Assembly (NCBI GenBank): GCA_036489375.1
Contig: DASXFX010000116.1
Span: forward strand, 23,364-87,363
From: Candidatus Binataceae bacterium
GTDB taxonomy: Bacteria; Desulfobacterota; Binatia; Binatales; Binataceae
Length of the DNA stretch: 64,000 bases
Reading direction: 5' to 3'
This document shows positions 2,326-38,464 of the stretch, one piece after another. The notes beneath the pieces were generated by a model. It worked only from the letters and a program-made list of their open reading frames with translations, was not told the DNA's origin and ran no database searches. A program made the translations under genes and the position numbers. How positions within the stretch are numbered: the stretch's first letter is position 1; every line of letters starts with the position of its first letter.

Positions 2326-4134
2326 TCAATCTGAATCGGTGTCATCGTCATCATTCGAGGCGTCCGTCGCGCTCGCGATTCGCGAGTATTCGAACATTCC
2401 AGCGCCGGTGGAGTTTCCCAAACGATAGTTAGCGAATCCGATCGAGGTATGGATTCGAGTATGGTCGGGGCCGGGGCGTGAGAGCGTCATGAAGGCATCG
2501 GCGATTCCGTGCAGGATCGCATCGTCGCCTTGCGGGGTAGTTATCGCCGCGGAGAACGGGTCGGGTCGCGCACCCGGAGCGGGGGTCTCAAGTTCAATCG
2601 CGTCGAGCTGGTATTCGCGCCATTCACCGGCGCCGAAAACTCGTGCCGTACGATGAGCTTCGCTCGCTGTAAAAGTCCACGCGCGGGCCTCGAGCGCGGC
2701 TCGCTCGGGCGCGTCAGGAAAGCACGCCCATATCATCCGGCGGGTTTCGAAGCGCTGCGGTTCGAGTCCGGTGAACGATGCACCGATCCTCGCCACGGCG
2801 GCTATTTCCCGGCGAACTCCACCGATAACCATCGTGCCGCGCAGGCGCCCAAACACGGCGCTACGACCGCCGCCGCCCACCCCGCCAATGGTGCGTTCAA
2901 ATAGCGTTTCTACCGTGCCTTCGGTCGAATTCGAAGACTGGGTAGCGGTATCGAGATCGATGGTTGCGGTGACGACCATGTTGCTGTCGAGACTGCTACG
3001 GGCCAAGGCATTCTCGACGCTGAGATAAGCTGCGCCATCGTTAACGATCACCGCTGGCCCACGAAAGCTTAGCCGTCCTCCGCGCGAATCGATCGCAAGC
3101 TCGAGTGGCCCCAGGCGCAGCTCTCCACCATCGCGGGACGGCTTGCCTTCGCCGGTAAACAGCGCGGCGCAACAATCGTCAAACAGCATCATGATGCGCG
3201 CGCCTGCGGCGCCCGAACCAAAATCGAAGCTTGCCATTCCACCAATTCGCGCAGTGGAGTCGTAGAACTCGATTCCGATTCTAACTGGCGGAGGTGTCGC
3301 CGAAACTGCGACTTTGGGCTCGACGGTCGCCCTCGGGGTGCGATCGACCACGATCGTTCCGGCTTGAGCAGAGGCTCCTGGTGGCAATGGAACATTGGCC
3401 GCGCCGCCGAAAACTTCGGTTAGCGCCGCAATGCCGCGGGTGCGCAGACCACCCGCTAATCGCACCGCTACCGACATCTCAAGCTGCAAGGCATCGATTA
3501 CCCGGGTCGCGGCGAGATCGGCGAGACGCCGCAAGGCCTCGATCTCGCTTTGAGCATGGCGCTCGGTGAACGCCTGCAACAAGTTCTGGCTGGCGCCGCC
3601 GGGATAACGCAGGCCGAATGTCGGAATGATGCCGGCCGCGTTGAGGTGTACGAAAAGCGCCGCCACGGGTCCGTTGATAAATTGATCGCTGGCCGAGACG
3701 TGAGCGCCGGCCGGCGGCCGCAACCGGCCGTTGGCGTGACGCAGGCCAAGGCCGAAATCAATGCGCGGCTCGATCACGTTCCAGCCGTGGATCAGCAACA
3801 CGGTCGCGCGACCGTGGCGGTCAACGATCTGGCTGACACGGTCGGCAAGGAGATCGAGCATCCATGGCGCGCGCGCGGCGATCTGCGAAAGCCGGTTGCA
3901 GTCAATCTCGTTGCGATCCATCCCGGCGTTGATAAGCGCGCTGGCGTGAAATCGATGGGCCAGATCGCGGGTAATCGCGGCGGTCTCGAGGTCGTTAACC
4001 TTGGGATGCAGGGTTGCGCGCGCGGCTGGTCCGGCACGGCCTCCATGCGGCGCGATCAGCAAAATGGGCGCGTCGCCCTCGATCACTTCGAGCCATGAAG
4101 CCGAGTCAATCCCGTCGCCGACTGGAACACCCAT
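2326..4134 (-). CDS. Uncharacterised two-domain protein: N-terminal N-formylglutamate-amidohydrolase/PghP-like hydrolase fold plus an unknown C-terminal domain
   Basis: The N-terminus has 'LLIAPHGGR', 'DRNEIDCNR' and 'LLIHGWN', resembling the FGase-family H-x-G / D-x-NR / H blocks. The last ~330 aa matched nothing I recognise. Acidic tail 'SNDDDDTDSD'. Start lies 6 nt after the pcs stop. Confidence 0.4.
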   Translation of the reverse strand: MGVPVGDGIDSASWLEVIEGDAPILLIAPHGGRAGPAARATLHPKVNDLETAAITRDLAHRFHASALINAGMDRNEIDCNRLSQIAARAPWMLDLLADRVSQIVDRHGRATVLLIHGWNVIEPRIDFGLGLRHANGRLRPPAGAHVSASDQFINGPVAALFVHLNAAGIIPTFGLRYPGGASQNLLQAFTERHAQSEIEALRRLADLAATRVIDALQLEMSVAVRLAGGLRTRGIAALTEVFGGAANVPLPPGASAQAGTIVVDRTPRATVEPKVAVSATPPPVRIGIEFYDSTARIGGMASFDFGSGAAGARIMMLFDDCCAALFTGEGKPSRDGGELRLGPLELAIDSRGGRLSFRGPAVIVNDGAAYLSVENALARSSLDSNMVVTATIDLDTATQSSNSTEGTVETLFERTIGGVGGGGRSAVFGRLRGTMVIGGVRREIAAVARIGASFTGLEPQRFETRRMIWACFPDAPERAALEARAWTFTASEAHRTARVFGAGEWREYQLDAIELETPAPGARPDPFSAAITTPQGDDAILHGIADAFMTLSRPGPDHTRIHTSIGFANYRLGNSTGAGMFEYSRIASATDASNDDDDTDSD

Positions 4135-4140
4135 CTCGAA

Positions 4141-4866
4141 TCACAGGTTCCGGCGTGCGGCGACACGGGTCGGATGCACGTGGAGGGCAAATGACATTGC
4201 AAAGTAGTAAACGACGAAGGCGAGCGACGTGTAAAGCAGAATGTCGTGGTGAGCGGGCAGCGTCGGTAGCATCGCGACCGTCGCAACTCCCCAAATCGCC
4301 GCAAGCGAGAGTGTCAGCGGGCGCATTGGTTCCGTCCGATTCGGGTAAATGTATTTGATCGGGATGAATACCATCAGTGCGAGCACCGCGACGATCAATG
4401 CGTTAGTGCGCGGCGTGAGGCCGAGGCAGAACAGGTAGAGCGCGACGAGATTCCAGTACGACGGAAACCCGCGAAAATAGTTGTCATCGGTCTTCGCGTC
4501 AGTCCGGCTGAAGCCGTAAGCGCTCGCGATCATCACGAAGCATGCGATCGCTTGGCCCGCGATTCCTGCCGGGAGTATCCCCGCGCGCAACATCAGAAAC
4601 ACCGGCACCGCGACGTAGGTGAGGTAGTCCACGATATTGTCGAGCAGAGCGCCGTCGAAGTAGGGGATGCGCTCGCGCACGCGCAGGGCGCGCGCCAGTG
4701 GTCCGTCGCTCGCATCGATCGCGATCGCGACCGTCATCATCGAAAACGCCCCGCGCCATTCGCCTCGCGCGGTGTAGTTTAATGCCAGCAGTCCCGCGAC
4801 CGCGCCGAGCGCTGTGTAAAAATGAACCGCCCAGCTACATCCAACCAGCAATCGCGTATTCGCCAT
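4141..4866 (-). CDS. pcs: Phosphatidylcholine synthase (CDP-alcohol phosphatidyltransferase family)
   Basis: 'DASDGPLARALRVRERIPYFDGALLDNIVDYLTYV' carries the D-x2-DG-x2-AR...G-x3-D-x3-D motif. Blocks 'KTDDNYFRGFPSYWN' and 'IYPNRTEPMRPL' match my recollection of rhizobial Pcs. About 240 aa, multi-pass membrane protein. Confidence 0.8.
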   Translation of the reverse strand: MANTRLLVGCSWAVHFYTALGAVAGLLALNYTARGEWRGAFSMMTVAIAIDASDGPLARALRVRERIPYFDGALLDNIVDYLTYVAVPVFLMLRAGILPAGIAGQAIACFVMIASAYGFSRTDAKTDDNYFRGFPSYWNLVALYLFCLGLTPRTNALIVAVLALMVFIPIKYIYPNRTEPMRPLTLSLAAIWGVATVAMLPTLPAHHDILLYTSLAFVVYYFAMSFALHVHPTRVAARRNL

Positions 4867-4893
4867 CGGCGCACCCGTGCGTGGCGCTCAGAT

Positions 4894-5421
4894 CTAGGGC
4901 TTCAGATCGCGCGGACCGAAGTAGTCTTCCAGGATGGTCATGAAAGGACCGCATGAGCGCCGCCGCTTGACGTGAGCGAGAGCCTCGTTGAGCGACATGC
5001 CGCCGTGCGCGCGCAGGTATGCGATTGCCAGCGTGGGTGCGCGATTCAGCCCGGCGTTGCAGTGCAGATAAACGCGTTCATTGGCGCCAACCAATGCGGC
5101 AAGATCGTCCAATCCTGCTCGTAGCCGGTCCGCCATGTCGTCCGCACTGCCGTCCTGAATGGGCGTGCGCACGTACTTGATTCCATGCTGGGCGGAAACT
5201 TCGCGCAGGCGCGCAACATCGAGCGCATTGATGCGCAAGTCTTCGTCGTCCTGGAGATTCAGAATTGCCGTCACGCGATGCTGATCGCGAAGCCATTCAA
5301 GGTCGTGCTCACGTGGATATTCGCCGACCAGCAGGTAATCGGTAATCTCGCTTACGGTCGGCCGCACGTCGCCGCGCGTCGGTCGTGCTCCGTTGTCGCG
5401 TCTTTGGGTCCACCACTCCAT
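4894..5421 (-). CDS. Dual-specificity (Cys-based) phosphatase family protein
   Basis: P-loop 'VYLHCNAGLNRAP' (HCx5R), with an upstream 'ILNLQDDEDL' block like glucan/lipid-type dual-specificity phosphatases. Confidence 0.8.
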   Translation of the reverse strand: MEWWTQRRDNGARPTRGDVRPTVSEITDYLLVGEYPREHDLEWLRDQHRVTAILNLQDDEDLRINALDVARLREVSAQHGIKYVRTPIQDGSADDMADRLRAGLDDLAALVGANERVYLHCNAGLNRAPTLAIAYLRAHGGMSLNEALAHVKRRRSCGPFMTILEDYFGPRDLKP

Positions 5422-5557
5422 GGTCTGACACTTATGCAGGAAGCCCGTCTCTAGACAATAAATTAAGACGGTGCACGGCAGCAGTCACGATCATCCGTAT
5501 AGCGCGCGGGCGAGTCTCGCAGAAATCTATCGCCAAATAGCACTGTCAATTCGAGGG

Positions 5558-6415
5558 CTAGCGCGCGCAATTCGCGGGGCTGCCCGCCTGCTTCCACTCG
5601 TAGAGCCAGATCGATGCGAGCACCGACGCGGCCTGGGCGACCTGCTGCGCTACCATGGCCATTTCGCGCCGCATCAATGCACGATCGAACTCGGGGCCGC
5701 GCTTTTCGCCGGTTTCCGCGCGCGTCGCGCGATCGGCCTCGATTACAGCACCGACTAACGGATTGCCCTGTTTGAGCTCCGCGATCGCCGCCGACCACAC
5801 GGAATCGATCTTTTCGAGATGGACCTGCGGTCGCGCGAGTTCTTCAACTTCGCCCACCGAACGATCGACGGCGCCTTCGAACCGCGCGTGCATCCCCCGG
5901 TCTTGCTGATAGCCGTCGAAATGGATGGTGGTATGCAGCGGCTGCGTCGCGTCGCCGGTGTAATGCGCCAGATATCCGGAGAGCAGAACGACCTGTGCGC
6001 AATCGCCGCTGCGCCACGCTTGTTGAACTCCCTGCGCCATCGCCTCGATCGTCCACGGCAAGGTGCCTGATCGCTGAAGCGTGCTCGCGCCATACTGAAG
6101 TTCCATCGCCGCAATGTCCGGCTTTAGTTCCGCGAAGGGATCGGCGCCAAAATTCTCCAGATCGATGTAATGACGAATCGCCTCGGCCTTGCCGTAACGC
6201 GCGCGCAAGCTTTCGTCGGGTGCGACCGCGTCTTCTTGCAAATCAGTCTCGTGCGCTGCGAGCAAATGCTTGAGCGGCGTATCGGGGAGTACTTCGACTG
6301 CCAAGCGCGCGATGAGCATGTGCGTGCGCGCGTCCCACGCATACCCGCGCATCGGCGTCGCGAATAGCCATATCGAGGCAACCAGGCATGCGAGAACTGA
6401 ACTGGTGCGGGTCAC
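5558..6415 (-). CDS. Secreted zinc-dependent phospholipase C / S1-P1 nuclease superfamily protein
   Basis: A signal peptide ending 'RGYA' would expose an N-terminal Trp ('WDARTHMLIARLAVEVL'), as in zinc PLC and P1 nuclease. 'YLAHYTGDATQPLHTT' is a metal-ligand block. Confidence 0.6.
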   Translation of the reverse strand: MTRTSSVLACLVASIWLFATPMRGYAWDARTHMLIARLAVEVLPDTPLKHLLAAHETDLQEDAVAPDESLRARYGKAEAIRHYIDLENFGADPFAELKPDIAAMELQYGASTLQRSGTLPWTIEAMAQGVQQAWRSGDCAQVVLLSGYLAHYTGDATQPLHTTIHFDGYQQDRGMHARFEGAVDRSVGEVEELARPQVHLEKIDSVWSAAIAELKQGNPLVGAVIEADRATRAETGEKRGPEFDRALMRREMAMVAQQVAQAASVLASIWLYEWKQAGSPANCAR

Positions 6416-6439
6416 GATGAAAGACTCCGCGAGGTGACC

Positions 6440-9400
6440 CTAGCCCTTGGCGTGGCCGCCCGAACGGCGAGTGCGAGGGCGTTCACTTGGCGGCGAATCG
6501 GCGTTAGTTTCGCCTTCGATCAAGAGCGTTGTTGCTGGAAGCGGCGGCGGGATCGCTTGAGTGATAGCCTCGATGCGCGACGCCTGCGGGCTCCTTTGCA
6601 CCATGGCCAAAACCGCGTGGCGAATGCGGTCCGCCAGCTTCCGATACGCTCCAGCACCCTCAGCGTCCCGCGCGACGAGGCGCAGTTCGTCACTCGTTAT
6701 CGCGCGCCCGATTCTGACTTCGACGGCTCCGTGCCGCGGCAGAAGCTTGCCCTTCCCGAGCACCTCGAAGGTGCCGCTGAGATGAATCGGGAGCACGTCG
6801 CAACCCGCATGCAATGCAAGATATCCGACACCGCTCTTGAACTCGTGAATCGATCCGTCCGGCGAGCGAGTACCCTCGGGAAACATCAATACGTTGCGTC
6901 CCGCGGCGAGCTCCGTCAGCGCCTGTTCGAGGGAATCGAGCTGCGCGCGTTCGCGATCGAACGGAATCAGCCGGGTGAAGTTAGTTGCGGCAAATCGACG
7001 CAGCGCGGTGTTGAAAAAATAATCCTTCGCCGCCAGCACCACCAGGTCGCGGCCATTTACGCCGAGCGCGTGAGCGACCAGACCGAAGTCGAGATGGCTT
7101 GCGTGATTCGCGACGACGATAAAATTGCGGTTCGCTGGAATGTTACCGCGCCCCATTACCCGTGGCTTTAGCCACGAGTCGAAGGCCGTCGCGAGCGTCT
7201 TGCGCATCGCGAATTCGCCGAGTCGCCGGATCGGCGCCGGCAACTCCATCGTGTAGGGCTGCGCGAAACGAGCGTACGACGGCAATTTGGGCCGATTCTG
7301 CCCCTCGCTCACGATACGTTGCAGGTCTTCGACGGTCGCGACGTTTGCGAGTTCCTCGGCACTGATGTCGCGCCCGGCTTTGATCGTGATCTGTTCGGCG
7401 AGCTCTGCCAGCGCGAGCGAATCTAGTCCTAAATCCTCGATCAGCCGCGTCGCTGGATTGATATTCGCAGCGCCACTTGCCACCTGCTCGAGCGCTTCGG
7501 CCAGCCACGACTCAACCTCAGTGTTGATCGCGGTCTTCTCCGCGCTGCGGCTTTCCACCATCCGATACAGTGTCGACGCGACTTCGGCGCGCTTGACCTT
7601 GCGCGTTCGTGTCCGCGGTAGCTCGGTGTCGGCGAAGCGCAGGATCCGAATACGGTTGTGAGGATTGAGCGTTGCGCTGACACGCTCGAAATGCGTTCGT
7701 AGCTGGTCTTCGACCGCGCGCCGGCTTTCGCCTTTCGCATAGGCCGGTATCGCGAGCGCCGCGACTTGCTCGCCCAGCCCGACCTTCAACCCCACTACGG
7801 CGAGTTCGCGCAGATACGGTGAGTGTCCGTAGGCCTCTTCAAGCTCGTCGATGTAAATGTTATTACCGCCCGCATCGACGATGACGTCCTTGGCGCGTCC
7901 AACGATATACAGTCGCCCTTCGCTATCGAAACGGCCCAGGTCCCCCGTATGCAGCCAGCCGTCCTTCAGTACCTCGTCGGTGACCGCCTGATTGCGGAAA
8001 TAACCGCTCATCACGTTGGGGCCGCGCGCGATGATTTCGCCGACTTGATCGATCTGATGATCGTGCGGTTCACCTCGGTGATGCGGAGGTTGACCGTCGG
8101 CGCCCGCAAGTCTCAGCTCCACCTTGGAAAGCGGTTTGCCGACCGAACCCGGCCGCAGCGGCTCGTCCGGACGCGCGACGCTCAGCACCGGAGCCGACTC
8201 CGTGAGGCCGTAGCCCTCGAGCAGCTTAATGCCGATGTCGTTAAAAAATTGCGCGACCCGCTGAGGCAGCGCTGCGCCCCCGCTCACGGCCAGCTTGAGC
8301 CGTCCGCCGAGTGCTGCGTGCGCCGGGCGGAATAGCATCGTTCCCAGGTTCAGCCGATAGTCGGCGTCGATCCTGCGATTCAGGTCGCGTAACTGGTCGA
8401 AAGCGGCTTGGAAGAAAGGCCCGCGCGCCTCAACGGTATCGATGATGCGGCGATGAATCGCCTCCCACAACGCGGGCACGCCGACCAGCGCGGTCGGTTG
8501 CACGTCGGCGAGCGTGCGCGACAGGCTCGCTGCATCAACCCCGAGCGGATAAACGATCTGCGCACCGCCCGCGAGCGGTAACATCAGCCCGCAAGTGAAT
8601 TCGAAGGTGTGATGAAGCGGCAGCAGCGAGAGCACGACGTCGTCGGCACCGAGCGCAAAGACTCGCCCGAGCGACGCGATCTGCGCCGTGAAATTCCCGT
8701 GCGACAGCATTACCCCTTTAGGCGTGCCGGTCGTCCCTGAAGTAAACACTATCGACGCCAGCGTGCGGCGTTCAATCTTGACCGGGGCGGCCGGTTGGCC
8801 GCGCAACATAAAGGGTCGCTGCAGGTCGCCGAGCTCCATCTCGACGATGCCGCTCATCGCCTCACCCACCGACTTGCCCAGGCGCTTCGAGCAGGCCGCC
8901 GAGGTCAGCGCCGCGCGCGGTTCAGCAATTCGCGACACCGCCGCCAATTCGTCCGGCGATATGAGATGGTCGAGCGGCACCGCGACCGCACCCGCATACA
9001 GGATTGCGAAATAGGCAATTACCCAGTCGGGCGAGTTCTCGGCGATCAACAACACCCGATCGCCCGGCTTGATCCCGCGCGTGCCGAGGAGCAGTCCCGC
9101 GCGTTGTGCGCGGTCATGCAGTTCGCGATAGCTGATCGAGGTTCGCTGGCCCGACGGCGTACGCGAATCGAGCGCCGGACGCGCGCCATAGCGCTCCGCC
9201 GCCCGGTCAAGCATTTCGACCAGGGTCTTATATCTATATGAGCTACCTGGGCGGGCGCGTGTATGCAGTTCGAGTTGCGGGAAAATGTGCCGGCGCAGTC
9301 CCGGCATATGCACATTCAGCCAATAGTCATTCCAGTCGATGCGCTCGGGATGATACGGATGACGATCGGCGTCGCCTGGTGCGAGCGCTGCGTAAAGGTC

Positions 9401-10885
9401 GCGGATATTCTTTCCGTGAAAGGTGTAAACGAGGTCCTGGATGTACGGCCGATATACTTCCGCGAGGGACCGCACCATCACCGCGCTCTTGCAGATCTTG
9501 TCAACTTGCCGCTCGAATTTGCGCGCCGGCGCGGAATCCTCGCCCATCAAGGTGCGCGCGAGAACCGCCGTCTGCTTGAGCATTGCGGGAATCTGGTTGC
9601 TCACCAACTCGTAGGTATTCTGCGAGACCACGGTTGCGTCCAGATGCGGCGCGAGCTTGCCCATCGGCCCGCCGTGCAACCGATGTTCACGCCGATTCGA
9701 TAGACCCGTCAACTCGACTAGCCGGCGCATCGGAAAAGGATTTACGTCCGAAGTACAGAGCTGGTAGACCTGCTTGTGACGCTTCAACAGAAGCGCCGCG
9801 AGCACCGGAACTATCGCGTGCGCGGCCAGATCGACCGGTATGACATCCAATACCAACGCACCCGTCGCCGGAACAAAGCGGAAGCCGCGCCCAGTCAGGT
9901 AGGTGAGCGGCGCGCTCGTGTTTACCCCCTGGTTCCAACCGGGCATCGGATCGCCGAGCGAACTCTCGATGACCGAAGGGCGCACGACCGTTGCAGTTAT
10001 TTCGTTGTGCGCGGCAAATACTAACTGCTCGCCGAGACTCTTGGTGTAGCTATAGGTATTCGGCCATCCCCAGTTCTGCGCGCGCTCCTTCCCGATCTGT
10101 TTGAAACGATCTTCGAGCCACTGTTTGCGCCGCGATTCGACCGCACGATCGCTATGGTCACCGCTGCTGCCCTCGCCGTGCTCCCCATCGGCAGCGGCGC
10201 GAAACTCGGACTGGCGCGCATGGTCATGGGATTCCGCCTCGACTCGATCGAGGGCTGTCAGCGTATCGCGAATCTCGCGCTGCAGATTGAAGTCGCGTCG
10301 CCCGTTGGGGCACCAGTCGGTCGGAAAGTCGTCTTCGAAGCGTTGGCCGTCCGCGATCCCCGCGACATAGCAGGTCGAAACGTGCACCAGCGAGGCGCCG
10401 TGGGTGCGGCAGAATTCGATTACATTGGCGACCCCGGTGGTATTGATCGCGATCGCCTTTTCCAGCGACGCCTCGAAATTCACCAACCCCGCGCAGTGGA
10501 TGACCGCGTCAATCGGATCGAAATCGAGGCTCGCGTCGCTGCCAATCAGACCAGGCTCGCTGATATCGCCCGGCACTACCGTGACCCGCTCCTCCACGTG
10601 CCGATCGAACTGCGATCCCAGATGTTCACGCACCGGACTGAGCGCCGGCGAATCGAGAATCTCGTTGCGAAACCGCTGCAGGCTGGAGCGCTGGTCGCCA
10701 CGAATTAAAAGCAGGATTTTTCCAATTTCGGGATGCCGGCGCAGCAGGATCGACAGCAGTACCTTGCCGAGGAAGCCGGTGCCCCCCGTAATCAGGATGC
10801 GGCGATTTCGCAGCACCTCTTCAAGCGGCGGCAGCGTCATCGCGCCCGTTGCTTTGCGTGTGCGCACGCCGTTCTTATTGGGCAT
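6440..10885 (-). CDS. Multidomain lipid enzyme: fatty-acyl reductase (SDR-e) / acyl-AMP ligase / acyl carrier domain / 1-acyl-glycerol-3-phosphate acyltransferase (ElbD-like)
   Basis: Reductase: '[12 protein letters not shown]' and 'YSYTKSLGE' (YxxxK). Ligase: '[21 protein letters not shown]', '[10 protein letters not shown]', '[27 protein letters not shown]'. Carrier: '[11 protein letters not shown]'. Acyltransferase: 'VANHASHLD' (HX4D) and '[10 protein letters not shown]'. Approximate domain spans on the + coordinate: acyltransferase 6685-7183, carrier 7300-7528, ligase 7585-9223, reductase 9685-10804. Confidence 0.85.
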   Translation of the reverse strand: [1481 protein letters not shown]

Positions 10886-10922
10886 CGGTGCTACCCATCA
10901 TTGTGGCTATTCGGCGCCGGTC

Positions 10923-12563
10923 CTATTCAACGTCAGCAATGACTATTGGCGGCAAATGCAAGTAGGTGATCGAAGCGGAGCGTCCATGATCTGCTGTCGC
11001 CATCGCGATCGCTTCATCCAGTGTGTCCGCTGCCTCCCAGCCCATCCGCGCCGCAACCTGGGGTTCTTCGCAACCTGCCGCGATTACTCGTCCGACGTGT
11101 TGCCGCGCTGGCTCGCCCCAGTACCACATGTAAAACGGATGAACTCCGTGATACGCATTTCCATAGCGGTACATGTGAGTATAGGTGGGATTGCGCGCAA
11201 ACTCGGCCTCGAACATCTTTGAAAGTTGCACTGCGTCGGTGGTCTCTGCCAGACAGCGATGGAAGAACTCGATGTAACTGGGATGGTGCTCCGGATGGAA
11301 TTCGTCCCGCAGCGGATGACAAATGATCATCGTGCCGCCCGGCTTCACCAACGGCTTGTTGCGGTACATGTTAAATAGGTAACCAAGTCCCATGCACTGC
11401 ACGAGCACCGGATTCATTACCGAATTGACGTTGTACGGACAGATATATGGTACGCCGACGATTAGTATGTCCGACTGCCCTTTTACTGGTACTGCGTATT
11501 GCTGGAATACCCGCGCCAGCGCCTGGTGATGCACCGCTTCAGTCTCACCCGCCCAAACCCCCGTCATCCCGAACGGCGCGGCGTACTGATGAAGTGCTTG
11601 ACGGCGTAGATCATTCGAGAGGTTTCCCAGCGTCCAACGAAAGCCCTTCAATCGCAAGCGATCCCAGTCGTTGAAACTGTCCTCATTCTTCTGCAGGAAA
11701 TCGAGCATGCCGCCATACATCTGAGTGTTGACCGCGGTCTCGATCGAAAAGACATTGACTTGCTGATTGACTATTCGGCCCATGCGGTCGGCCGAGCTAT
11801 GCAGCGCCGAACGAGTCGGATCCATGTAAGAGTGACTATTGCGCAAGGTCGCTGGATTGTGATGATGGCGCAGGCTTTGGTAGGGCGCCAGGCCCACTGC
11901 CACCGACTTGTGACCGCCGTCCATCGGCACCAGGTTGATATTCAGGTAAATCAGCAGGTCGGATTCCGCTGCGCGCCGGGATAGCAATACTTCCTCGCCA
12001 TGAGCGGTCTTGCCCAGCATCGCAATCTCAGCCGGATTCTCGCCATCGAAGTTGTAGAGCCGATCCGGCCAGTATTGCTTGAACGCCCGCTCTCCGACGA
12101 TGCGGCGAATCTCAGTCTCCGTCATTCGCCGATGTAGCGCCGTCGCGATGATAAGGTGGACGTCGTCAACACCGTAGTCTGCCAGCGTCTGTAAAATCTG
12201 GTTGAGCAGCCGCTCGCGAATATCCGGCCGGCGCATCTGCGGCAGCGGCAGGCTCAGGTCGTCGATCGCAATCGTGACCCGCATGTTTGGATTGAGCTGC
12301 GCAAACAACGGGTCCGCGTTGAGCGGGTGCAGCAGCGCATAACGAATGGCAGTGTCGGGATCGGGCAACGCATCCAACGGCGGCGGCGGATAGATCACGC
12401 GCGTTCCCGCGGGCAGTTTCTGCAGCAGGAATTCGTCGCCGTACGGAATAAGCCGCGGTTCGGATTTGCGACTTAATGTCACCACCAAGTCGCGCCGCGC
12501 TCCGACCTCGTGCTTCAACTCGGCCGGTTTAAGTTCTTTGAGCTTAGCCTCGGGCCGCGCCAT
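10923..12563 (-). CDS. LarA-like (lactate racemase N-terminal / DUF2088) domain protein
   Basis: 'VTIAIDDLSLPLP', 'LIIATALHRRMTETEIRRIVGE' and 'PMDGGHKSVAVGLAPYQSLRHHHN' follow the LarA-family block pattern. I chose the ATG at 12563, preceded by GAGAGGA, over the track start at 12596. Confidence 0.7.
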   Translation of the reverse strand: MARPEAKLKELKPAELKHEVGARRDLVVTLSRKSEPRLIPYGDEFLLQKLPAGTRVIYPPPPLDALPDPDTAIRYALLHPLNADPLFAQLNPNMRVTIAIDDLSLPLPQMRRPDIRERLLNQILQTLADYGVDDVHLIIATALHRRMTETEIRRIVGERAFKQYWPDRLYNFDGENPAEIAMLGKTAHGEEVLLSRRAAESDLLIYLNINLVPMDGGHKSVAVGLAPYQSLRHHHNPATLRNSHSYMDPTRSALHSSADRMGRIVNQQVNVFSIETAVNTQMYGGMLDFLQKNEDSFNDWDRLRLKGFRWTLGNLSNDLRRQALHQYAAPFGMTGVWAGETEAVHHQALARVFQQYAVPVKGQSDILIVGVPYICPYNVNSVMNPVLVQCMGLGYLFNMYRNKPLVKPGGTMIICHPLRDEFHPEHHPSYIEFFHRCLAETTDAVQLSKMFEAEFARNPTYTHMYRYGNAYHGVHPFYMWYWGEPARQHVGRVIAAGCEEPQVAARMGWEAADTLDEAIAMATADHGRSASITYLHLPPIVIADVE

Positions 12564-13338
12564 TAGATTTCCTCTCTGACCATTCGCCGACGGCATCCGG
12601 CCCGATTCCTCCTGTCTTGCGCATGCCTGACGCCTTGTCGAAGCGCACGACCGGCCATTGCCGGCTGCGCGCGACCGCGAGTAGCCGCCGGTTCGGGTTC
12701 ACCGCTACCGGATGTCCCAGCGCCGCCAGGAACGGGAGATCGTAATGCGAGTCCGCGTAGCCCCACGACGCGCTCAGCGCAATCCGGTTGGCCGCCGCGT
12801 ACTCCACGCACCAGGCCGCCTTTGCCTCGCCCGCCATCACTGGTTCGCGCAGGCGGCCCGTCGCGAGACCGCGGCTATAGACCAACTCGTTTGCGGCGAA
12901 AGTCTTGATGCCGAGACGTTCTGCCAACGGCGCCACGATAAAGTCCGGCGATCCCGTCACTAGCACCGGTTCAAGGCCTGCTTCGCGATTTGCCGCCACC
13001 ATTTCGATCGCGCGCGGATACATGTTCGCCATCAGTATGCGGTCGCAATACTCCTCGCCCAACATCACCAATCGATCGCGCGAGATTCCCTTGAACATTT
13101 CGAAGAGGGTGACGTTCAGAAGATGGCGATCGCGCCGTTCCGCCAGGTAGAGCATCGGCAACCGCGTCGCCAGTCCCAGCACGTAGCTGACCCGCCCAGT
13201 CCATTCGCCAATGTTGGTGAAGGCGAAGAGCGTACCGTGCACCAGGTTCAGGCCCATCAGGGTGCCGTCGAGATCGTAAAACGCCGCGCCTTTAAGAGCA
13301 CGGCCATTACGTTTGTGATCGTGTTCGTAAACTGACAT
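12544..13338 (-). CDS. HAD-IB family hydrolase (phosphoserine-phosphatase-like)
   Basis: HAD motif I 'FYDLDGTL', motif II 'LVTGS', Lys in 'GEAKA', motif IV 'YADSHYDLP'. The stop overlaps the next gene's start by 20 nt. Confidence 0.8.
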   Translation of the reverse strand: MSVYEHDHKRNGRALKGAAFYDLDGTLMGLNLVHGTLFAFTNIGEWTGRVSYVLGLATRLPMLYLAERRDRHLLNVTLFEMFKGISRDRLVMLGEEYCDRILMANMYPRAIEMVAANREAGLEPVLVTGSPDFIVAPLAERLGIKTFAANELVYSRGLATGRLREPVMAGEAKAAWCVEYAAANRIALSASWGYADSHYDLPFLAALGHPVAVNPNRRLLAVARSRQWPVVRFDKASGMRKTGGIGPDAVGEWSERKSNGAARG

Positions 13339-13339
13339 G

Positions 13340-13999
13340 TCAGTCTAGTTTGGGCCCAATAAAATTGCTTCGTTCGGCCACCCCGCCTTCTTCCAGCAGC
13401 CCGGCCGCCGCCAGTAACTCCGGGCGCGCCACTCCGCGTAAACCAAAGTCCAATATCTCCTCCGCCAGCGCAGCCGCATTTCCGTGCCGATCGAGCGACA
13501 ATTTACCCACCGCTTCCTTCACGCCGCCCAGAATGCAGTACGATACTGCGCGCGTATCGCAGTGCCGGACCAATTTCATCTCAATCCCCAGATCGAGCGA
13601 TCGTTGGATCTGCTCGGCTACGCGTTCATAAAAATCCCGTATCCGTGCGTCAAGTTCCCGATCGAAGCCGGTCGAATGGTTAAGCAGAATATCCGTCAGC
13701 TCACGCTCCGCCAATACGAACGTCAACACTCGCGAGAGGTTGTCGCGCAATTGCTCGACCGGATTCGCTTCGCCCGGCCCGACTCGCAGGCGCTGGATCC
13801 GGTTACGCAGCTCGCGCAATGTCTGCTCTAGCAACTCCTCGAAGATGTCGCGCTTGTTCTGGAAATAGAGGTAGAAAGTACCGCGGGCGATGCGGGCGCG
13901 CGCAATAATATCGGCCACATTCGTGCGATGATAGCCCTTGCGGGCGAAGATTCGCTTGGCGTGACGTAAGACTTGCGCGCGTCGTTCTTGCCGTTCCAT
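13340..13999 (-). CDS. TetR/AcrR-family transcriptional regulator
   Basis: HTH 'RIFARKGYHRTNVADIIARARIARGTFYLYFQNKRDIFEEL'. I used the internal ATG (MERQERR...). The 95-aa N-terminal extension of track ORF 13340..14284 is Arg-rich and overlaps the upstream lipoprotein gene. Confidence 0.8.
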   Translation of the reverse strand: MERQERRAQVLRHAKRIFARKGYHRTNVADIIARARIARGTFYLYFQNKRDIFEELLEQTLRELRNRIQRLRVGPGEANPVEQLRDNLSRVLTFVLAERELTDILLNHSTGFDRELDARIRDFYERVAEQIQRSLDLGIEMKLVRHCDTRAVSYCILGGVKEAVGKLSLDRHGNAAALAEEILDFGLRGVARPELLAAAGLLEEGGVAERSNFIGPKLD

Positions 14000-14231
14000 A
14001 TTGCGTGTACTTTGCCGGACACTAATGGCGTCTGGATTCAGAGTCAAACCGCGAAATTCCTGCAAAACAATCGACAGTCGCCGTTGCCTATGAATGCCCT
14101 CGAATGCGAATCGGCGGGTAGTGATTTGCTCGTCGATTGCGAAGCCACTCGGAACCTTGGCGTCCCGCGGAGACTTCGCGCTCACAGCGGATAGTCTCCA
14201 ATCGCGACGAGCGTTCCATGCACCGGGCCGC

Positions 14232-14852
14232 CTATGGCTGTGACCCTTCCGGCTTCGTTGCCGTTGGCGTGGACTTCGCCGCAACCGCGGGCACCGCTGG
14301 CGATGCTACCGGCGGCGAGGGGCAGGGCGATGTAAAAGGAACAACCCCTACCAGCACGTTTTGCGAGAATCCTCCCACGGAAACGTTGAAGTACGTGCAC
14401 CCCGGTTGAACGCCAATCCACAATCCATTGCCTTGCGAACTATAACTGATGACGCCGGGAAAATTCGCGTTCGGCGCGATCGTGTTCCACTGCGTATTGT
14501 TGGCGTTGGTAATGTCCCGGTATTTCGGATTCGTGGTGTCGCTAGAGAAGCCGAAGATCCCCTGGGCCTGGAATTGCACCGTGTTGCTCCCGACCGCGGT
14601 CCCGACCGAGGTTGCCAGCGCGATCGGCGTGCAGATCGGAGTCGGCGTTGACGTCGGAACGATGCCGTTGGTCGCGGTCGGCTTGGGCGTCGGTATCGGC
14701 GGTGCGCCCGCGCACACGTTGAGCCCGATTAACGCTTCGAAAGAGACTGGCGTCGCGGTGCCTGAGCTCCCGCCGCCGCAACTCATAATCAGCGCCGCCG
14801 CCAGAAAGGACAGCACCGGCACCAGCACTAGACATCGTCGCCGCCAAATCAT
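14232..14852 (-). CDS. Hypothetical lipoprotein, Pro/Thr-rich linkers
   Basis: 'MIWRRRCLVLVPVLSFLAAALIMSCGGG' is a signal peptide with a lipobox-like Cys. No recognisable catalytic motif. The track start at 14891 is an alternative. Confidence 0.55.
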   Translation of the reverse strand: MIWRRRCLVLVPVLSFLAAALIMSCGGGSSGTATPVSFEALIGLNVCAGAPPIPTPKPTATNGIVPTSTPTPICTPIALATSVGTAVGSNTVQFQAQGIFGFSSDTTNPKYRDITNANNTQWNTIAPNANFPGVISYSSQGNGLWIGVQPGCTYFNVSVGGFSQNVLVGVVPFTSPCPSPPVASPAVPAVAAKSTPTATKPEGSQP

Positions 14853-14999
14853 TAAGCCTTGAACGATGACGGCGCATGTCGGCGTTGTCAAGCCAGCGGC
14901 GTCCGCGGTCCGGGCTCATCGACGGCTCCAGTGAGCGGTCTGCTTCTCGCCGAGCTGCGGAGAAACCGTCCCGGTGCTAAGGCATTGAAAGGAAAATAG

Positions 15000-15443: not shown

Positions 15444-16460
15444 GTGAAACTATCTGTAATCGACCAATCGCCGGTGTCCGTCGGATTCACTCCTGCCGAC
15501 GCGCTGCGCAATACGATCGAGCTAGCCCGGCTGACCGATCGGCTCGGGTACCATCGCTACTGGATTGCCGAGCATCACGCGATTCCGGCACTCGCCAGTC
15601 CCGCGCCTGAAATCCTGATCGACCGTGTTGCCGCCGAGACCTCGACGATAAGGGTCGGCTCGGGTGCCGTACTGTTGCCCCATTATAGCCCGCTTAAGGT
15701 TGTCGAGACCTTCCGCGTTCTCCATGCGCTATACCCGGGCCGTATCGATCTCGGGCTCGGCCGCGCGCCCGGCGGCACTCCGCTGGACACCTACGCGCTG
15801 CGGCGCGATCGCGACCGCGAGCGTGACTTGGGCGATGACTTCCCGCGGCAACTGATTGAGCTGCTGACTTTCCTGCGTGGCGGGTTTCCGCCGGATCATC
15901 CATTCAGCCGGATTCATGTTTCGCCGGCTATGCCGGGGGCGCCCGACGTCTGGTTGCTAGGGTCGAGCCTGTGGAGCGCTTCGGCGGCAGCGCAGCTAGG
16001 ACTGCCTTACGCCTTCGCCCATTTCATCGATCAACTACCGACTCGTCCTGCTATCGAGCACTATCGCTCACACTTCATATCGTCCAATGGATCGAAGCCC
16101 GAGATCATCCTGGCGCTAGGAGTGATTTGCGCCGATACCGATGAGGAAGCGGAACGGCTCGCGGGTAGCGCGCGGCTCTTCCGCCGCCGGATCCGGCAAG
16201 GAGACGTGCGCGCGATACCTACGCCCGAGGAAGCGCTGGCGGAGCTGGGACCGCGCAATCTGGAAGCCGCGCCCGAGACGGGTGAGTTCCCGCGCTACGT
16301 TATAGGTGCGCCGGATCGGGTTCGTCCCCAACTTATCGATATGGGAAGCCAGCTTGGGGTTGACGAGATGATGATCGTGACGATCGTGCACGACCATCGC
16401 GCGCGGATGCATTCGTACGAGCTACTGGCCGAGGCCTTTGAACTCGCTCGGCGCGCTTAG
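15444..16460 (+). CDS. LLM-class flavin-dependent oxidoreductase (luciferase-like monooxygenase)
   Basis: 'LGYHRYWIAEHH', 'VGSGAVLLPHYSPLKVVETF' and 'IDLGLGRAPG' are typical of the luciferase-like family. GTG start. Confidence 0.85.
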   Translation: MKLSVIDQSPVSVGFTPADALRNTIELARLTDRLGYHRYWIAEHHAIPALASPAPEILIDRVAAETSTIRVGSGAVLLPHYSPLKVVETFRVLHALYPGRIDLGLGRAPGGTPLDTYALRRDRDRERDLGDDFPRQLIELLTFLRGGFPPDHPFSRIHVSPAMPGAPDVWLLGSSLWSASAAAQLGLPYAFAHFIDQLPTRPAIEHYRSHFISSNGSKPEIILALGVICADTDEEAERLAGSARLFRRRIRQGDVRAIPTPEEALAELGPRNLEAAPETGEFPRYVIGAPDRVRPQLIDMGSQLGVDEMMIVTIVHDHRARMHSYELLAEAFELARRA

Positions 16461-16654
16461 CTGCCGGGCGATCCGTCGGCCGCAGCACCGATCTGTTAGC
16501 TACTGAGCTGAGTGTCTGCCGCAGCACGGATGAATTCGCGAGCGCCAGTCGCAGAGGCGTTCGAGCGTACGCGGCGTGCTTAATCACGGGATCGCTGCGG
16601 TTACTGGTATCGATGCGGTTTACTCGTGATGAACAATTGGGTTCGACCGGTTGG

Positions 16655-16960
16655 CTCGTGATGGGGCAAATAAGTCTCGATCCATTGGCTCGGGCGAAAC
16701 CAACTGGCCTCCGATTTCGTTGTTAGTTATGGAAGCGGTTAGCTTCGGCTTATCGAATCGCGATTAAGCCGATTAGGCTCGAGATTTTGCAAGTCACGAA
16801 AGAAGTCAGCTTCAACGTATCGATTTGCGATTAAGGCCGGATGGCCTAAATTTCGTGGTTGGTTATTAAACCGTTCAGTCCGGACCGATTAACGCATTGT
16901 TAAGTCAGTTAGCCTCGCGTTGTTGACTAATTATGAAAGCAGTTAGCCTTGACTTAGACA
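16655..16960 (+). repeat. Degenerate tandem array, period about 67-69 bp, ending inside the start of the methyltransferase CDS
   Basis: Related units are anchored at about 16661, 16729, 16797, 16865 and 16933. Compare 'cgttgttagttATGGAAGCGGTTAGCTTCGG' (16718) with 'cgttgttgactaattATGAAAGCAGTTAGCCTTGA' (16918). A 'cgattaag' half-unit also recurs. Confidence 0.55.
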
Positions 16961-17733
16961 CGGAAGACCTGGCGCAGCTCTATGAGCGGGTAAGTGCGGA
17001 CCGCCAGTTCAAGGCAGGCCGGCGCCTGATTGAAGAACTAAAAGTAAGTGTTGGCGAGAGCATTCTCGACCTGGGTTGTGGGACCGGCCTGCTCGCGGAG
17101 TACATCGCCGGAATCGTTGGGACGGGCGGTAGCGTGACCGGAATCGATCCTTTGCCATTGCGGATAGAAATCGCGCAAGGCAGGGCGCGGCCCAATCTGA
17201 GTTTCAAAACTGGCAACGCCTACGATCTAAGTGGATTCGCGCCGGCCACCTTCGATGCCGTATGCCTTAATGCGGTCTTTCATTGGCTGCCCGAGAAGAA
17301 GGAACCGCTGCGCCAGATTTATCGCGTGCTGAAGTCCGGCGGCCGTATCGGAATCTCGACCGGCGCAAAGGGCAGTCCCAATCCGTTGCATGAGATCAAG
17401 CAACGGGTGCTTTCACGCGAGTCTTACAAAGAGTATTCGGCGGCCGCGCAAACCGCAGTTCATCGAGTAAGTGCGGAAGAGCTGTCGAGCTTGCTGATAG
17501 AGGCAGGCTTTACGATCCAGGCGCTCGAAGAGCGTCCTAGTCCGCAGCCGCAACTTGCGCCTGAAGCGGCAATCAGGTTTTCCGAGGCGAGCTCATTTGG
17601 GAACTTCCTTGGTCATCTTCCGGCAAAGCTGCGCGAACGAGCGCGGGAAGATCTCAAGCGCGAGTTGGAGCAGACCGATGTGCGCGCTTCGCGCGAACGC
17701 CTGCGCCTGATTGCGATCGCCGTCAAGCCGTAG
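16933..17733 (+). CDS. Class I SAM-dependent methyltransferase
   Basis: Motif I 'ILDLGCGTGLLAEYIA', post-I 'VTGIDP', and 'LKSGGRIGIS'. Confidence 0.85.
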   Translation: MKAVSLDLDTEDLAQLYERVSADRQFKAGRRLIEELKVSVGESILDLGCGTGLLAEYIAGIVGTGGSVTGIDPLPLRIEIAQGRARPNLSFKTGNAYDLSGFAPATFDAVCLNAVFHWLPEKKEPLRQIYRVLKSGGRIGISTGAKGSPNPLHEIKQRVLSRESYKEYSAAAQTAVHRVSAEELSSLLIEAGFTIQALEERPSPQPQLAPEAAIRFSEASSFGNFLGHLPAKLRERAREDLKRELEQTDVRASRERLRLIAIAVKP

Positions 17734-17852
17734 GGCGCTTCCACGCGATTGGAGGCCTCGAGCTTAGGGAGTCGTGAGGTAGGTGGGCCTCGCTCCCAGG
17801 TAGCTTCCGAGCGGCACTTTCTAACCAGTGCGCCATTGCCCGCGGCGATGTC

Positions 17853-18308
17853 TTACTTGTTGAAGGTCGTCAGCGTGGCTCCGTCGGGCGCGACGAACAC
17901 CGCGAGCAGAGTCGCCGTCGTTTCACCAGGGTTGGCGGTCAGCGTGTGTTCCGTGCCGGGCGGTTCGACCCAGCTTTGCCCCACCGCATAGTCAGTAATC
18001 TTGCCGCGATTGAGCTGCGATCGGACCGTACCCGAAAGCACGTAAGCGAAGACGAAGCCCGCATGATGATGCGGTGGGACCTTCGCTCCGGGTGGCAGGG
18101 TGACGACGACAGCGGTAAGCGTGCTACCGGGAGCGTTCGCCAATTTATCGGCACTAATTGCTTTCACGCCAACTGCCGGCGGTGCGGCAGACTGGGCGCG
18201 AGCAGTCGCTATGAGCGACAGGAGCAACATCGTGGCACTTAGCATGAGGGTTAACGAAACCCATGCCCGGCGGCTATTTGCGGATACGCGGCAGGATGAA
18301 CGCTTCAT
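17853..18308 (-). CDS. Secreted cupin-domain protein
   Basis: 'MKRSS...LIATARAQS' signal peptide. Cupin blocks 'GAKVPPHHHAGFVFAYVLSG' and 'PPGTEHTLTANPG'. Start chosen at the ATG preceded by GGGAGG. Confidence 0.75.
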   Translation of the reverse strand: MKRSSCRVSANSRRAWVSLTLMLSATMLLLSLIATARAQSAAPPAVGVKAISADKLANAPGSTLTAVVVTLPPGAKVPPHHHAGFVFAYVLSGTVRSQLNRGKITDYAVGQSWVEPPGTEHTLTANPGETTATLLAVFVAPDGATLTTFNK

Positions 18309-18537
18309 GAGACCTCCCATTCGTCGCGCCACAATATGGCGCATTACAGCTAGTGGGGACAGCTTTCACACCTACCGCATCGAGCGCCACCTTCGTCGCG
18401 GTTCCATCATCAGTACCCACGACATTCAGGTGCGAGAGGGCTTTCACCCGGTGATGGATTTGTCGGCGCCTGTGCTAGACTCGCGACCGTTTTGAAGCCG
18501 GTGCTTCGGAACAGGTCTGAAAACAGGGAGAGGGAAA

Positions 18538-31963: not shown

Positions 31964-32511
31964 TTGGCGGATGGATCGTTGTTGGAAGACGGGGCGCGAG
32001 CGCCGACCGCTCCAACCAGTCGCGAAGCGTCGCTATATAGTTTTTGGTCGATCTTCTCACGCACTGCAGTTCTGGCGGCACGGTCCAATTCCAAGTGAGT
32101 CGGTTCTGAGTAAAGCGAATAGGACTTTGTGACATACGCTTTGGCAGTGTAGTCGCCAAGTATCCGGTCACCATCAATGATCGACAACGACGCGAACGCA
32201 GTTGCACCGTAGTCGCCAAGTGGCGCGCCTATATAAGTGACGGGATCGAACGCAGTGACGATAAGAGGGATATGGTACTCGTCATGCGAGAGTTCCTCGC
32301 GATAAGAAAAAGTGATCGGCGAATCTTTGGACAATGACATCGCGACCGCAGGTGGTAACTCATCCGGATTGCCGTCGATCAGCCGTCCAGTGAATGGCAA
32401 CGGACGCGCTGGCTGCTGTGCCATACGGGGAGGCAGGCTTGGCTGCTGAATGGCGCACGAGCAAGCGAACGTAATGGCGAGAAGTGCTGCGAATACAAAT
32501 CCACGTTTCAT
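31960..32511 (-). CDS. Hypothetical lipoprotein
   Basis: 'MKRGFVFAALLAITFACSC' signal and lipobox. I used the internal ATG at 32511. There is a 4-nt overlap with the downstream lipoprotein gene. Confidence 0.5.
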   Translation of the reverse strand: MKRGFVFAALLAITFACSCAIQQPSLPPRMAQQPARPLPFTGRLIDGNPDELPPAVAMSLSKDSPITFSYREELSHDEYHIPLIVTAFDPVTYIGAPLGDYGATAFASLSIIDGDRILGDYTAKAYVTKSYSLYSEPTHLELDRAARTAVREKIDQKLYSDASRLVGAVGARAPSSNNDPSAK

Positions 32512-38406: not shown

Positions 38407-38464
38407 TCATCTGTCTCTCAGCATTACTTGAGGAAAAGTCAGGCCGCAGCGAATACCATCAGTT

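Follow-up and report, generated by a model that had tools for sequence, protein, structure and literature searches.

A probable Binataceae membrane-lipid locus that pairs a known elb ether-lipid core with a separable phosphatidylcholine-synthase module

Do eight tightly packed genes from an uncultured Binataceae bacterium encode one lipid pathway, or do two separable gene sets lie side by side there? We addressed this question for positions 2326-13999 of a 64,000-nucleotide (nt) stretch of DNA, hereafter the window, from 'Candidatus Binataceae bacterium' (GenBank assembly GCA_036489375.1, contig DASXFX010000116.1, positions 23,364 to 87,363). The original prediction had described this locus as an undescribed, self-contained operon that links ElbD-type ether-lipid chemistry to phosphatidylcholine synthesis. 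Our analysis favors a different answer, to which we give a probability of roughly 0.55: the locus is a composite Binataceae membrane-lipid locus, in which two evolutionarily separable modules lie behind one TetR-family regulator. Module A would comprise ElbB, ElbC and ElbD, the known elb ether-lipid core, and module B would be a Binataceae-specific head-group unit made up of an optional phospholipase C (PLC)-like phosphoesterase, a Cys-phosphatase, a Pcs-type transferase and a protein that combines an FGase fold with an AttH-like barrel. This answer is built on gene order, domains, motif conservation and the distribution of the modules, from which we infer every enzymatic step, the co-transcription and the product.

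Gene order and distribution of the two modules

The listing of open reading frames (ORFs) places eight co-directional genes on the minus strand, given here from 5' to 3':

13340-13999, minus strand: TetR-family regulator, 219 amino acids (aa), start codon ATG at 13999
12544-13338, minus strand: HAD-IB phosphatase, ElbB homologue, 264 aa
10923-12563, minus strand: LarA-type (Lar_N) protein, ElbC homologue, 546 aa
6440-10885, minus strand: ElbD-type fusion, 1481 aa, with FAR-type reductase, fatty-acid adenylating ligase, carrier and PlsC-type acyltransferase
5558-6415, minus strand: secreted tri-zinc phosphoesterase of the Zn-PLC/S1-P1 superfamily (the PLC-like protein), 285 aa, optional member of module B
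4894-5421, minus strand: Cys-based dual-specificity-type phosphatase (DSP), 175 aa
4141-4866, minus strand: Pcs-type cytidine diphosphate (CDP)-alcohol phosphatidyltransferase, 241 aa
2326-4134, minus strand: two-domain orphan, 602 aa, with FGase fold, AttH/CrtC-like double beta-barrel and acidic tail

The start of the LarA-type gene was set at its second ATG (12563; the first is at 12596), which gives the 546-aa length of its homologues. From TetR to the orphan, the coordinates give a 1-nt gap, a 20-nt overlap and gaps of 37, 24, 136, 27 and 6 nt, so that every junction of the predicted gene array was reproduced, and the domain calls of all eight proteins were borne out, by Pfam and NCBIfam profile searches and, for the orphan, by structure comparison. 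A consensus scan of the minus strand found no intergenic intrinsic terminator; its sole match falls within the orphan coding sequence. Rfam returned zero matches for the whole window at gathering thresholds, and hence no known riboswitch or leader lies in the gaps.

ElbD (64-95% identity) and the orphan (51-100%) both have their nearest relatives in metagenomes, and the relatives with names come from metagenome-assembled genomes (MAGs) labeled 'Candidatus Binataceae bacterium' or, in older entries, 'Deltaproteobacteria bacterium'. A metagenome scan anchored on the orphan yielded 80 loci, some of them near-duplicates from related samples; 62 carry enough upstream sequence to be read through pcs and the phosphatase, and 49 are determinable further upstream. 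The phosphatase, pcs and the orphan occur in that order in all 62. Upstream of this module, the 49 determinable loci divide as follows:

ElbD and the PLC-like gene directly upstream: 15 of 49 loci
ElbD directly upstream, without the PLC-like gene: 16 of 49 loci
TetR only, no HAD-LarA-ElbD: 6 of 49 loci
HAD only, no LarA-ElbD: 2 of 49 loci
none of TetR, HAD, LarA and ElbD: 10 of 49 loci

ElbD is therefore directly upstream of the module in 31/49 loci, and the PLC-like gene is found in 20/49. When Binataceae loci were instead anchored on ElbD, the DSP-pcs-orphan set lay directly downstream in 7/7 distinct loci. Given that the order recurs in these 7 ElbD-anchored and 31 orphan-anchored related loci, the arrangement is not due to chance, and the predicted gene order is indeed conserved among relatives. 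Module B also persists where module A is missing, and so it shows no dependence on ElbD in cis. One of the loci with nothing of the set upstream lies on a 1.2-Mb contig and has unrelated, opposite-strand genes upstream of the module.

In a neighbor-joining tree built on the orphan, the loci without ElbD do not form one group; they occupy at least four different positions, each nested within ElbD-linked loci. This scattering fits an ancestral eight-gene locus from which elbBCD would have been lost or relocated repeatedly, apparently at least four times, and the TetR or HAD remnants at ElbD-less loci look like scars of such events.

These distributions bear directly on the idea of a dedicated, self-contained pathway, in which all eight proteins would act in sequence to give an alkyl-ether phosphatidylcholine: ElbD would make the alkyl-glycerol backbone, intermediates would be trimmed by the phosphatases together with the PLC-like enzyme, and Pcs would add choline. 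Such a pathway would agree with the tight packing of the genes, including an overlap, with the pcs module directly downstream at every ElbD-anchored Binataceae locus, and with the fact that TetR remains with the pcs module after elbBCD loss, as one regulon would. However, DSP, pcs and the orphan occur without ElbD at 18/49 determinable loci, and the PLC-like gene is missing from more than half of them. That module B can stand on its own speaks against eight steps dedicated to one product, and we consider this explanation unlikely; further evidence on it is given below.

Three relatives show departures of their own. L086 (6023-11824) and L087, whose orphans are 73-74% identical to that of the window, carry the lipoprotein, HAD, PLC-like, DSP, pcs and orphan genes and have no TetR, LarA-type or ElbD gene; a double deletion might account for this layout, or else the locus was put together differently. 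In L001, the closest long contig, frameshifts split the LarA-type gene (8304-9943), pcs (16028-16713) and the orphan (16720-18523). Because both pieces of each gene are 72-97% identical to the window protein, these frameshifts are probably long-read assembly errors, not pseudogenes.

The elb core and its LarA-type protein

Judged by their domains and order, the HAD phosphatase, the LarA-like protein and the fusion of the window are elbB-elbC-elbD, an already known core. The operon described in Myxococcus xanthus consists of elbA (NAD epimerase), elbB (HAD), elbC (unknown function), elbD (FAR-ACS-ACP-AGPAT) and elbE (NAD epimerase); loss of elbD abolishes ether lipids of both the alkyl and the vinyl type, and in vitro work has demonstrated ACS and ACP activity (PMC9131029). 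In addition, elbE is required for full ether-lipid levels in that organism.

The window HAD protein matches Pfam HAD (2e-29) and NCBIfam TIGR01490 (107.8 bits, above the cut-off of 98.3), its translation carries the DxDGT motif, and homologues with 36-41% identity lie upstream of LarA-ElbD in Myxococcota and Acidobacteriota loci. The fusion protein contains NAD_binding_4 (3e-51, residues 32-358), AMP-binding (1e-83, 559-963), PP-binding (2e-5, 1127-1188) and Acyltransferase (2e-24, 1242-1369) domains, with the motifs TGGTGFLG, YxxxK, TSGTTGTPKG, GYGLTE, DSL, NHASHLD and FPEGTRS intact. The proposed resemblance to ElbD thus stands, with four domains in the same order and intact catalytic motifs, and full-length relatives in Myxococcota and Acidobacteriota share 37-41% identity.

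Like the M. xanthus elbA-elbE operon (ElbD MXAN_1528; MIBiG BGC0000871), the window keeps the elbB-elbC-elbD order and the ElbD motifs. Unlike that operon, it lacks elbA and elbE, is headed by TetR and has the PLC-like, DSP, pcs and FGase/AttH genes in the place of elbE, and its host comes from the phylum Binatota. A second comparison is offered by the eukaryotic FAR1/GNPAT/AGPS/alkyl-dihydroxyacetone phosphate reductase route, which, as predicted for ElbD, involves fatty-acid activation, reduction and acyl transfer onto a backbone derived from glycerol phosphate, and whose FAR and acyltransferase domains belong to the same families as those of the window ElbD. In contrast to that route, the window locus has no AGPS homologue, and its predicted activities are fused in one carrier-bearing protein.

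To survey the core outside Binatia, we used an alignment of diverse ElbD proteins to search a collection with a single genome for each species, which gave a sample of at least 15 full-length loci, none of them from Binatia. The order HAD, LarA-type, ElbD is found in 9 of these, in Bradymonadaceae, Polyangiaceae, Myxococcales, Kofleriaceae, Pyrinomonadaceae and other Acidobacteriota among the matches listed, where two further loci have the LarA-type gene and ElbD only. The gene after ElbD is a NAD-dependent epimerase (elbE) in 7/7 tested non-Binatia loci, and in a Kofleriaceae genome (L172) the precomputed Pfam labels read HAD, Lar_N, ElbD and epimerase. No homologue of pcs, DSP, the PLC-like gene or the orphan was found by tblastn within 10 kb of ElbD at any of the at least 15 loci, and profile hidden Markov models built from 25-86 Binataceae sequences gave the same absence at E <= 1 in the non-Binatia ElbD loci listed. 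One of these is a Pyrinomonadaceae (subdivision 4) locus, with no pcs within 10 kb of elbD. ElbD beside pcs recurs within Binataceae and was not found at the ElbD loci listed from other phyla.

Three loci carry a divergent ElbD type (28-31% identity): L013 (10001-16197), L014 (10647-16806) and L047 (10004-15350), two from Acidobacteriota and one from Phycisphaerae. Their HAD gene comes after ElbD and their flanks hold no LarA-type gene; in L013 and L014 a zinc alcohol dehydrogenase is next after HAD, and in L047 ElbD is split in two. Such loci may represent a second pathway architecture.

The term 'undescribed' must be withdrawn for part of the locus, since, TetR aside, its first three genes are those of the published M. 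xanthus operon (PMC9131029). Moreover, a preprint (bioRxiv 10.64898/2026.06.23.733905) describes elbD and elbB homologues beside variable lipid genes in the sponge symbionts Poribacteria and Acidobacteriota; clades 1 and 2 are said to include CDP-alcohol phosphatidyltransferases, and clade 3 a phosphatase. Those clusters belong to other phyla than the window, and the text searched does not specify the type of transferase and mentions no LarA-type, DSP, Zn-PLC or FGase/AttH genes. The window locus is therefore a variant of the known elb cluster, without elbE, headed by TetR and joined to a Binataceae-specific Pcs module that is able to stand alone. The division into modules separates a three-phylum ether-lipid core (ElbB, ElbC and ElbD) from lineage additions.

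Within this core, the LarA-type protein is the best-conserved member of the cluster (window and L002, L004, L005, L007, L009-L012, L015, L016, L018 and L020). ElbC shows 84-92% identity within Binataceae and 50-58% across phyla, compared with 64-83% and 37-41% for ElbD, and across phyla it lies directly upstream of ElbD. It matches Pfam Lar_N (1e-34) and NCBIfam NF052592 (LarAH14/15/16; 832 bits, above the cut-off of 740), and its nearest solved structures are the single-histidine LarA homologues 9q2u and 9q3j. His144, Lys219 and His235 are invariant in 14 ElbC sequences (13 orthologous loci plus the window) from three phyla; Lys219 corresponds to the cofactor-binding lysine of LarA. Alignment to 9q2u equates His144 and His235 with the catalytic and the nickel-binding histidine of LarA, respectively (roles according to PMC12611868). 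The second catalytic histidine (His174 of Lactobacillus plantarum LarA), which racemization requires, has no counterpart at or close to this position in ElbC, where Asn208 and Asn210 are invariant instead, which makes a classical racemase unlikely. The same histidine is absent from LarAH groups 14-16 (PMC12611868).

In these features ElbC resembles LarA_Sp and LarA_Bw (9q2u and 9q3j; PMC12611868) and LarAH14/15/16, which have Lar_N, the catalytic histidine, the lysine and the nickel-binding histidine and lack the second histidine. The genomic context of ElbC is lipid biosynthesis, whereas that of these homologues is carbohydrate or 2-hydroxy-acid metabolism; within the NF052592 group, LarAH15 is a gluconate 2-epimerase and LarAH14 was inactive on the substrates tried. 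No larB, larC or larE was found among the window ORFs scanned or among the upstream ORFs scanned in six other-phylum loci; what the scanned ORFs 5' of the elb genes code for there is prolyl oligopeptidase, EF-G, TonB/HEAT, CheR/CheB, cNMP-binding and UPF0182 proteins. A literature search found no link between LarA/DUF2088 and elbC. A profile search with myxobacterial ElbC gave no named M. xanthus protein among the 120 matches listed, so that the assignment of M. xanthus elbC to the LarA type comes from its position.

The ElbC residues suggest that a nickel-pincer enzyme acts in bacterial ether-lipid synthesis. Could ElbC use this cofactor for the missing key step of the ElbD ether-lipid route? 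We regard this as a doubtful proposal, and its chemistry as speculation: ElbC would take a hydride from the C2 hydroxyl of acyl-glycerol-phosphate, the transient keto intermediate would let alkyl replace acyl by the logic of AGPS, and ElbC would then give the hydride back. If it is true, aerobic ether-lipid synthesis in Myxococcota, Acidobacteriota and Binatota needs nickel, and the Binataceae ElbC product feeds a head-group module of Cys-phosphatase, Pcs and FGase/AttH protein, giving ether phosphatidylcholine. In any case, the conservation of ElbC and its cofactor-binding residues make ether-bond formation in the ElbD pathway a testable question.

The Pcs-type module and the likely product

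The pcs product matches Pfam CDP-OH_P_transf at 2e-4, and five NCBIfam phosphatidylcholine-synthase models at 1.6e-59 to 2e-40, whereas pssA reaches only 2e-8 (34 bits). It is 28-38% identical to the annotated pcs products of Sinorhizobium meliloti, Legionella and Pseudomonas aeruginosa, equals them in length, and has in common with them a modified CDP-alcohol motif, D51xxD54G55xxA58R59-x12-G72xxxD76xxxD80, and other invariant residues. The x12 spacing is one that we take to be diagnostic of Pcs; a literature search found no confirmation of this. The five models and the motif common to annotated pcs thus support the predicted identity as a phosphatidylcholine synthase.

The neighborhood of the gene is distinctive. 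In S. meliloti, Legionella and P. aeruginosa pcs is solitary, whereas in Binataceae it is always flanked by the Cys-phosphatase and the FGase/AttH protein. The phosphatase matches DSPc (3e-16), has the HCx5R P-loop HCNAGLNR and no signal peptide, and adjoins pcs in every related locus; among solved structures, the plant glucan phosphatases LSF2 (7e-19) and SEX4 come closest to it. Since the bacterial enzyme otherwise stands alone, this strict trio calls for an explanation.

Such strict coupling raises the question of whether the transferase uses choline at all. It might instead join a CDP-lipid and a phosphorylated alcohol into a phosphorylated lipid that the Cys-phosphatase then dephosphorylates, giving a new head group that the FGase-fold domain would further deacylate. 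Two-step systems of this kind include PgsA with phosphatidylglycerophosphate phosphatase (PTPMT1, which has the DSP fold) and phosphatidylinositol phosphate (PIP) synthase with PIP phosphatase. The phosphatase accompanies the transferase in 62/62 loci, its nearest solved relatives act on phospho-sugars and not on proteins, the obligatory FGase-fold partner suggests further head-group modification, and the Pcs scores lie under the equivalog cut-offs. Nevertheless, we judge this explanation very unlikely: strong NCBIfam matches are confined to the Pcs models (1.6e-59), with none to a PgsA or PIP-synthase model at E <= 0.01, the x12-spaced motif and the further invariant residues are those of the S. 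meliloti, Legionella and P. aeruginosa enzymes, and PTPMT1 is not among the best 60 of 76 solved phosphatase matches.

The 285-aa PLC-like protein scores above the Pfam cut-offs for Zn_dep_PLPC (2e-8, 35.1 bits) and S1-P1_nuclease (5e-7, 30.2 bits). Its HYxGDxxQPxH...H..E ligands align with those of Bacillus cereus phosphatidylcholine-specific PLC, and the nine zinc-ligand positions W27, H32, D67, H82, H151, D155, H161, H176 and E180 are invariant across the seven homologues aligned. A signal peptide is predicted, and cleavage at an A-x-A|W site, placed by eye, would expose an N-terminal Trp, which is a zinc ligand in the Zn-PLC/S1-P1 superfamily; the Trp1-His6 spacing is that of P1 nuclease. 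The last zinc ligand is Glu, as in PLC.

All named matches of the orphan are 'hypothetical protein' entries from Binataceae or 'Deltaproteobacteria bacterium' MAGs. Its own Pfam matches are sub-threshold (FGase 0.0035, 18 bits against a cut-off of 28.9; DUF7064 8e-4); at E <= 0.01, FGase is matched by 8/28 members of its family and DUF7064 by 19/28. An AlphaFold2 (AF2) model based on 28 relatives has a mean predicted local distance difference test (pLDDT) score of 78.7 and a predicted template-modeling (TM) score of 0.78. In Foldseek searches, its N-terminal half matched the FGase structure 2q7s (6e-5, TM 0.56 on the target), and its C-terminal half matched AttH 2ich (4e-9), Fsa2/Phm7, 25-phosphosteroid lyase 9g4c (2e-8) and kievitone hydratase 7a0t (6e-7), with TM scores of 0.46-0.54 on the target. 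The earlier FGase-like call is accordingly backed by structure. As modeled, the orphan has the FGase fold without belonging to the FGase family PF05013, and would join a metal-amidohydrolase fold to a double barrel of a type that accommodates lipophilic substrates; it is probably a lipid-binding hydrolase. Its C-terminus (2326-2370, minus strand) is rich in Asp, Glu and Ser (SNDDDDTDSD) and disordered in the model, and most relatives have a similar tail.

Taken together, the domains suggest the following scheme. ElbD would adenylate a long-chain fatty acid and load its own carrier domain; the FAR-type domain would reduce the thioester to an aldehyde or alcohol, and the PlsC-type domain would act on a glycerol-phosphate backbone. 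ElbC and ElbB would process the intermediate by a redox-neutral step and a dephosphorylation. Pcs would condense choline with a CDP-activated glycerolipid to phosphatidylcholine, and one may guess that the secreted PLC-like phosphoesterase and the cytoplasmic Cys-phosphatase deliver the head-group alcohol or recycle it. For an ether-linked phosphatidylcholine to form, alkyl-acyl-glycerol phosphate derived from ElbD would have to enter the CDP-diacylglycerol pool. Such a lipid is a plausible product, which would be reached by the convergence of two modules and not by a dedicated eight-step pathway.

Several of these points return to the dedicated pathway. Pcs enzymes draw on CDP-diacylglycerol of the general pool, a family property that speaks against a private route, and the PLC-like protein, having a signal peptide, cannot reach cytoplasmic intermediates. 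The pcs module does take the place that elbE occupies in other phyla and could substitute for a late step, but the at least 15 other-phylum ElbD loci, Pyrinomonadaceae included, have none of the downstream four genes within 10 kb. Ether lipids with a phosphocholine head group are reported from Acidobacteria subdivision 4 (bioRxiv 10.64898/2026.06.23.733905), which would favor such a pathway. The claim of a self-contained pathway is nonetheless not sustained, given the ElbD-less module B loci, the ElbD loci without the downstream four and the missing elbE.

The two-module reading itself faces several difficulties. No elbE homologue is present in the locus, in the 64-kb window or in any Binataceae locus examined, and the FAR and acyltransferase activities of ElbD have never been demonstrated, M. 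xanthus included (PMC9131029). The Pcs scores fall under the NCBIfam equivalog cut-offs (201.5 against 440 bits for the Legionella model and 138.6 against 300 for that of Pseudomonas); these models are genus-level equivalogs, and scores below their cut-offs weaken the call without excluding it. Module B occurs without module A in about a third of the loci, and gene order kept inside one family can reflect mere descent; the convergent Mrp/ParA-DksA-MiaB-LolA-FtsK block downstream is equally conserved. What the phosphatase, the PLC-like protein and the orphan do can only be guessed. Finally, the phylum Binatota is uncultured, and a genomic survey of it does not discuss lipids.

Binatota are widespread in soils and sediments, and the locus predicts that many of them make ether lipids and phosphatidylcholine. 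It therefore bears on the reading of environmental ether-lipid biomarkers and supplies concrete genes to express.

Regulatory elements and surroundings

Two regulatory candidates and one further ORF belong to the picture of the locus:

14019-14047, minus strand: promoter-like element 5' of TetR, TTGACT (14047-14042), 17-nt spacer, TAGTGT (14024-14019), by consensus resemblance only
5422-5458, minus strand: conserved non-coding block abutting the phosphatase start codon, inside the 136-nt gap
14232-14891, minus strand: 219-aa lipoprotein-like ORF that carries IMSC, a lipobox-like motif, and lacks a Pfam match; candidate ninth gene

The regulator matches TetR_N (3e-15) and TetR_C_24 (1.5e-6) in Pfam, and its top NCBIfam match is the Bacillus-type FadR (1e-16, below the cut-off). 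Orthologues with 70-90% identity head the locus in relatives, including those without HAD-LarA-ElbD. About 55 nt 5' of the TetR ATG, the pattern TTGAC(A/T), 17-18 nt, TA(G/C)NNT is present in 22/22 Binataceae loci compared, and it is kept even in those without elbBCD. An inverted repeat at 14169-14199 was considered as a TetR operator and dropped, as it is absent from 21/21 related loci. In the Myxococcales locus L009 (565-2685), what stands immediately before the LarA-type gene is a TetR_N domain, with no HAD gene detected; TetR beside elb genes may therefore not be unique to Binataceae.

The block before the phosphatase gene reads TTG(G/T)(A/C)TAG...TTCCTGCATAAGTGTCAGACC-ATG and is common to the window and its six closest relatives (L001, L085, L089, L090, L086 and L087). 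The main clade has a different conserved block (GACGCTGGAATACTTGCCCGCCGGATGGTTACATTTGAAT) at the same place, whether ElbD, PLC or TetR precedes. These blocks were rejected as sigma-54 elements because of an unsuitable GG-to-GC spacing, which leaves no more than a weak sigma-70-like reading. The block is possibly an internal promoter, operator or leader. The promoter-like element at TetR and the block before the phosphatase gene point to one regulated locus with a likely second start: both modules are probably transcribed together from the conserved promoter before TetR, with a second transcription start probably before the phosphatase gene.

If module B has a promoter of its own, could the two modules be functionally unrelated neighbors that descent has kept together? 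One would then be an ether-lipid or fatty-alcohol module and the other a choline-salvage and phosphatidylcholine module, in which the extracellular PLC-like enzyme releases phosphocholine, the phosphatase frees choline and Pcs uses it, a scheme with a parallel in PlcH, PchP and Pcs of P. aeruginosa. The conserved pre-DSP block does suggest a separate promoter; module B is autonomous at 18/49 loci, always with the same convergent Mrp/ParA gene as neighbor; synteny is just as strong in the housekeeping block that flanks the locus; and the non-Binatia matches listed show no cross-phylum association of the modules. On the other hand, ElbD without module B was seen at no sampled Binataceae locus (0/7), TetR heads both arrangements, and the gaps between the modules are small: 24 nt from ElbD to the PLC-like gene here, and 50-106 nt from ElbD to DSP, between called genes, where the PLC-like gene is missing (L002, L168 and L170). 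Moreover, the phosphatase lacks a signal peptide and does not belong to the HAD type that acts on phosphocholine in Pseudomonas, and simple choline salvage leaves the FGase/AttH protein without a place. We consider unrelated neighbors quite unlikely and retain the composite locus under one regulator.

Downstream, the locus is flanked by the convergent Mrp/ParA-DksA-MiaB block at 11-2232. Upstream lies the lipoprotein-like ORF, followed by a divergent luciferase-like monooxygenase. Homologues of this ORF with 37-68% identity stand directly 5' of TetR or HAD in L001, L086, L097 and L171. It may be a ninth member of the unit; with its 232-nt gap, its membership is uncertain.

No elbE, choline transporter or lar gene was found among the ORFs scanned in the rest of the window, which encodes ordinary metabolism (thiolase, enoyl-CoA hydratases, CoA transferases, amidase, MurF and others). 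The part at 32001-48000 has a G+C content of 0.52-0.57, compared with about 0.60 elsewhere in the window, and encodes an enoyl-CoA hydratase, a CoA transferase, MsrA, an MMPL protein, a GMC oxidoreductase and methyltransferases.

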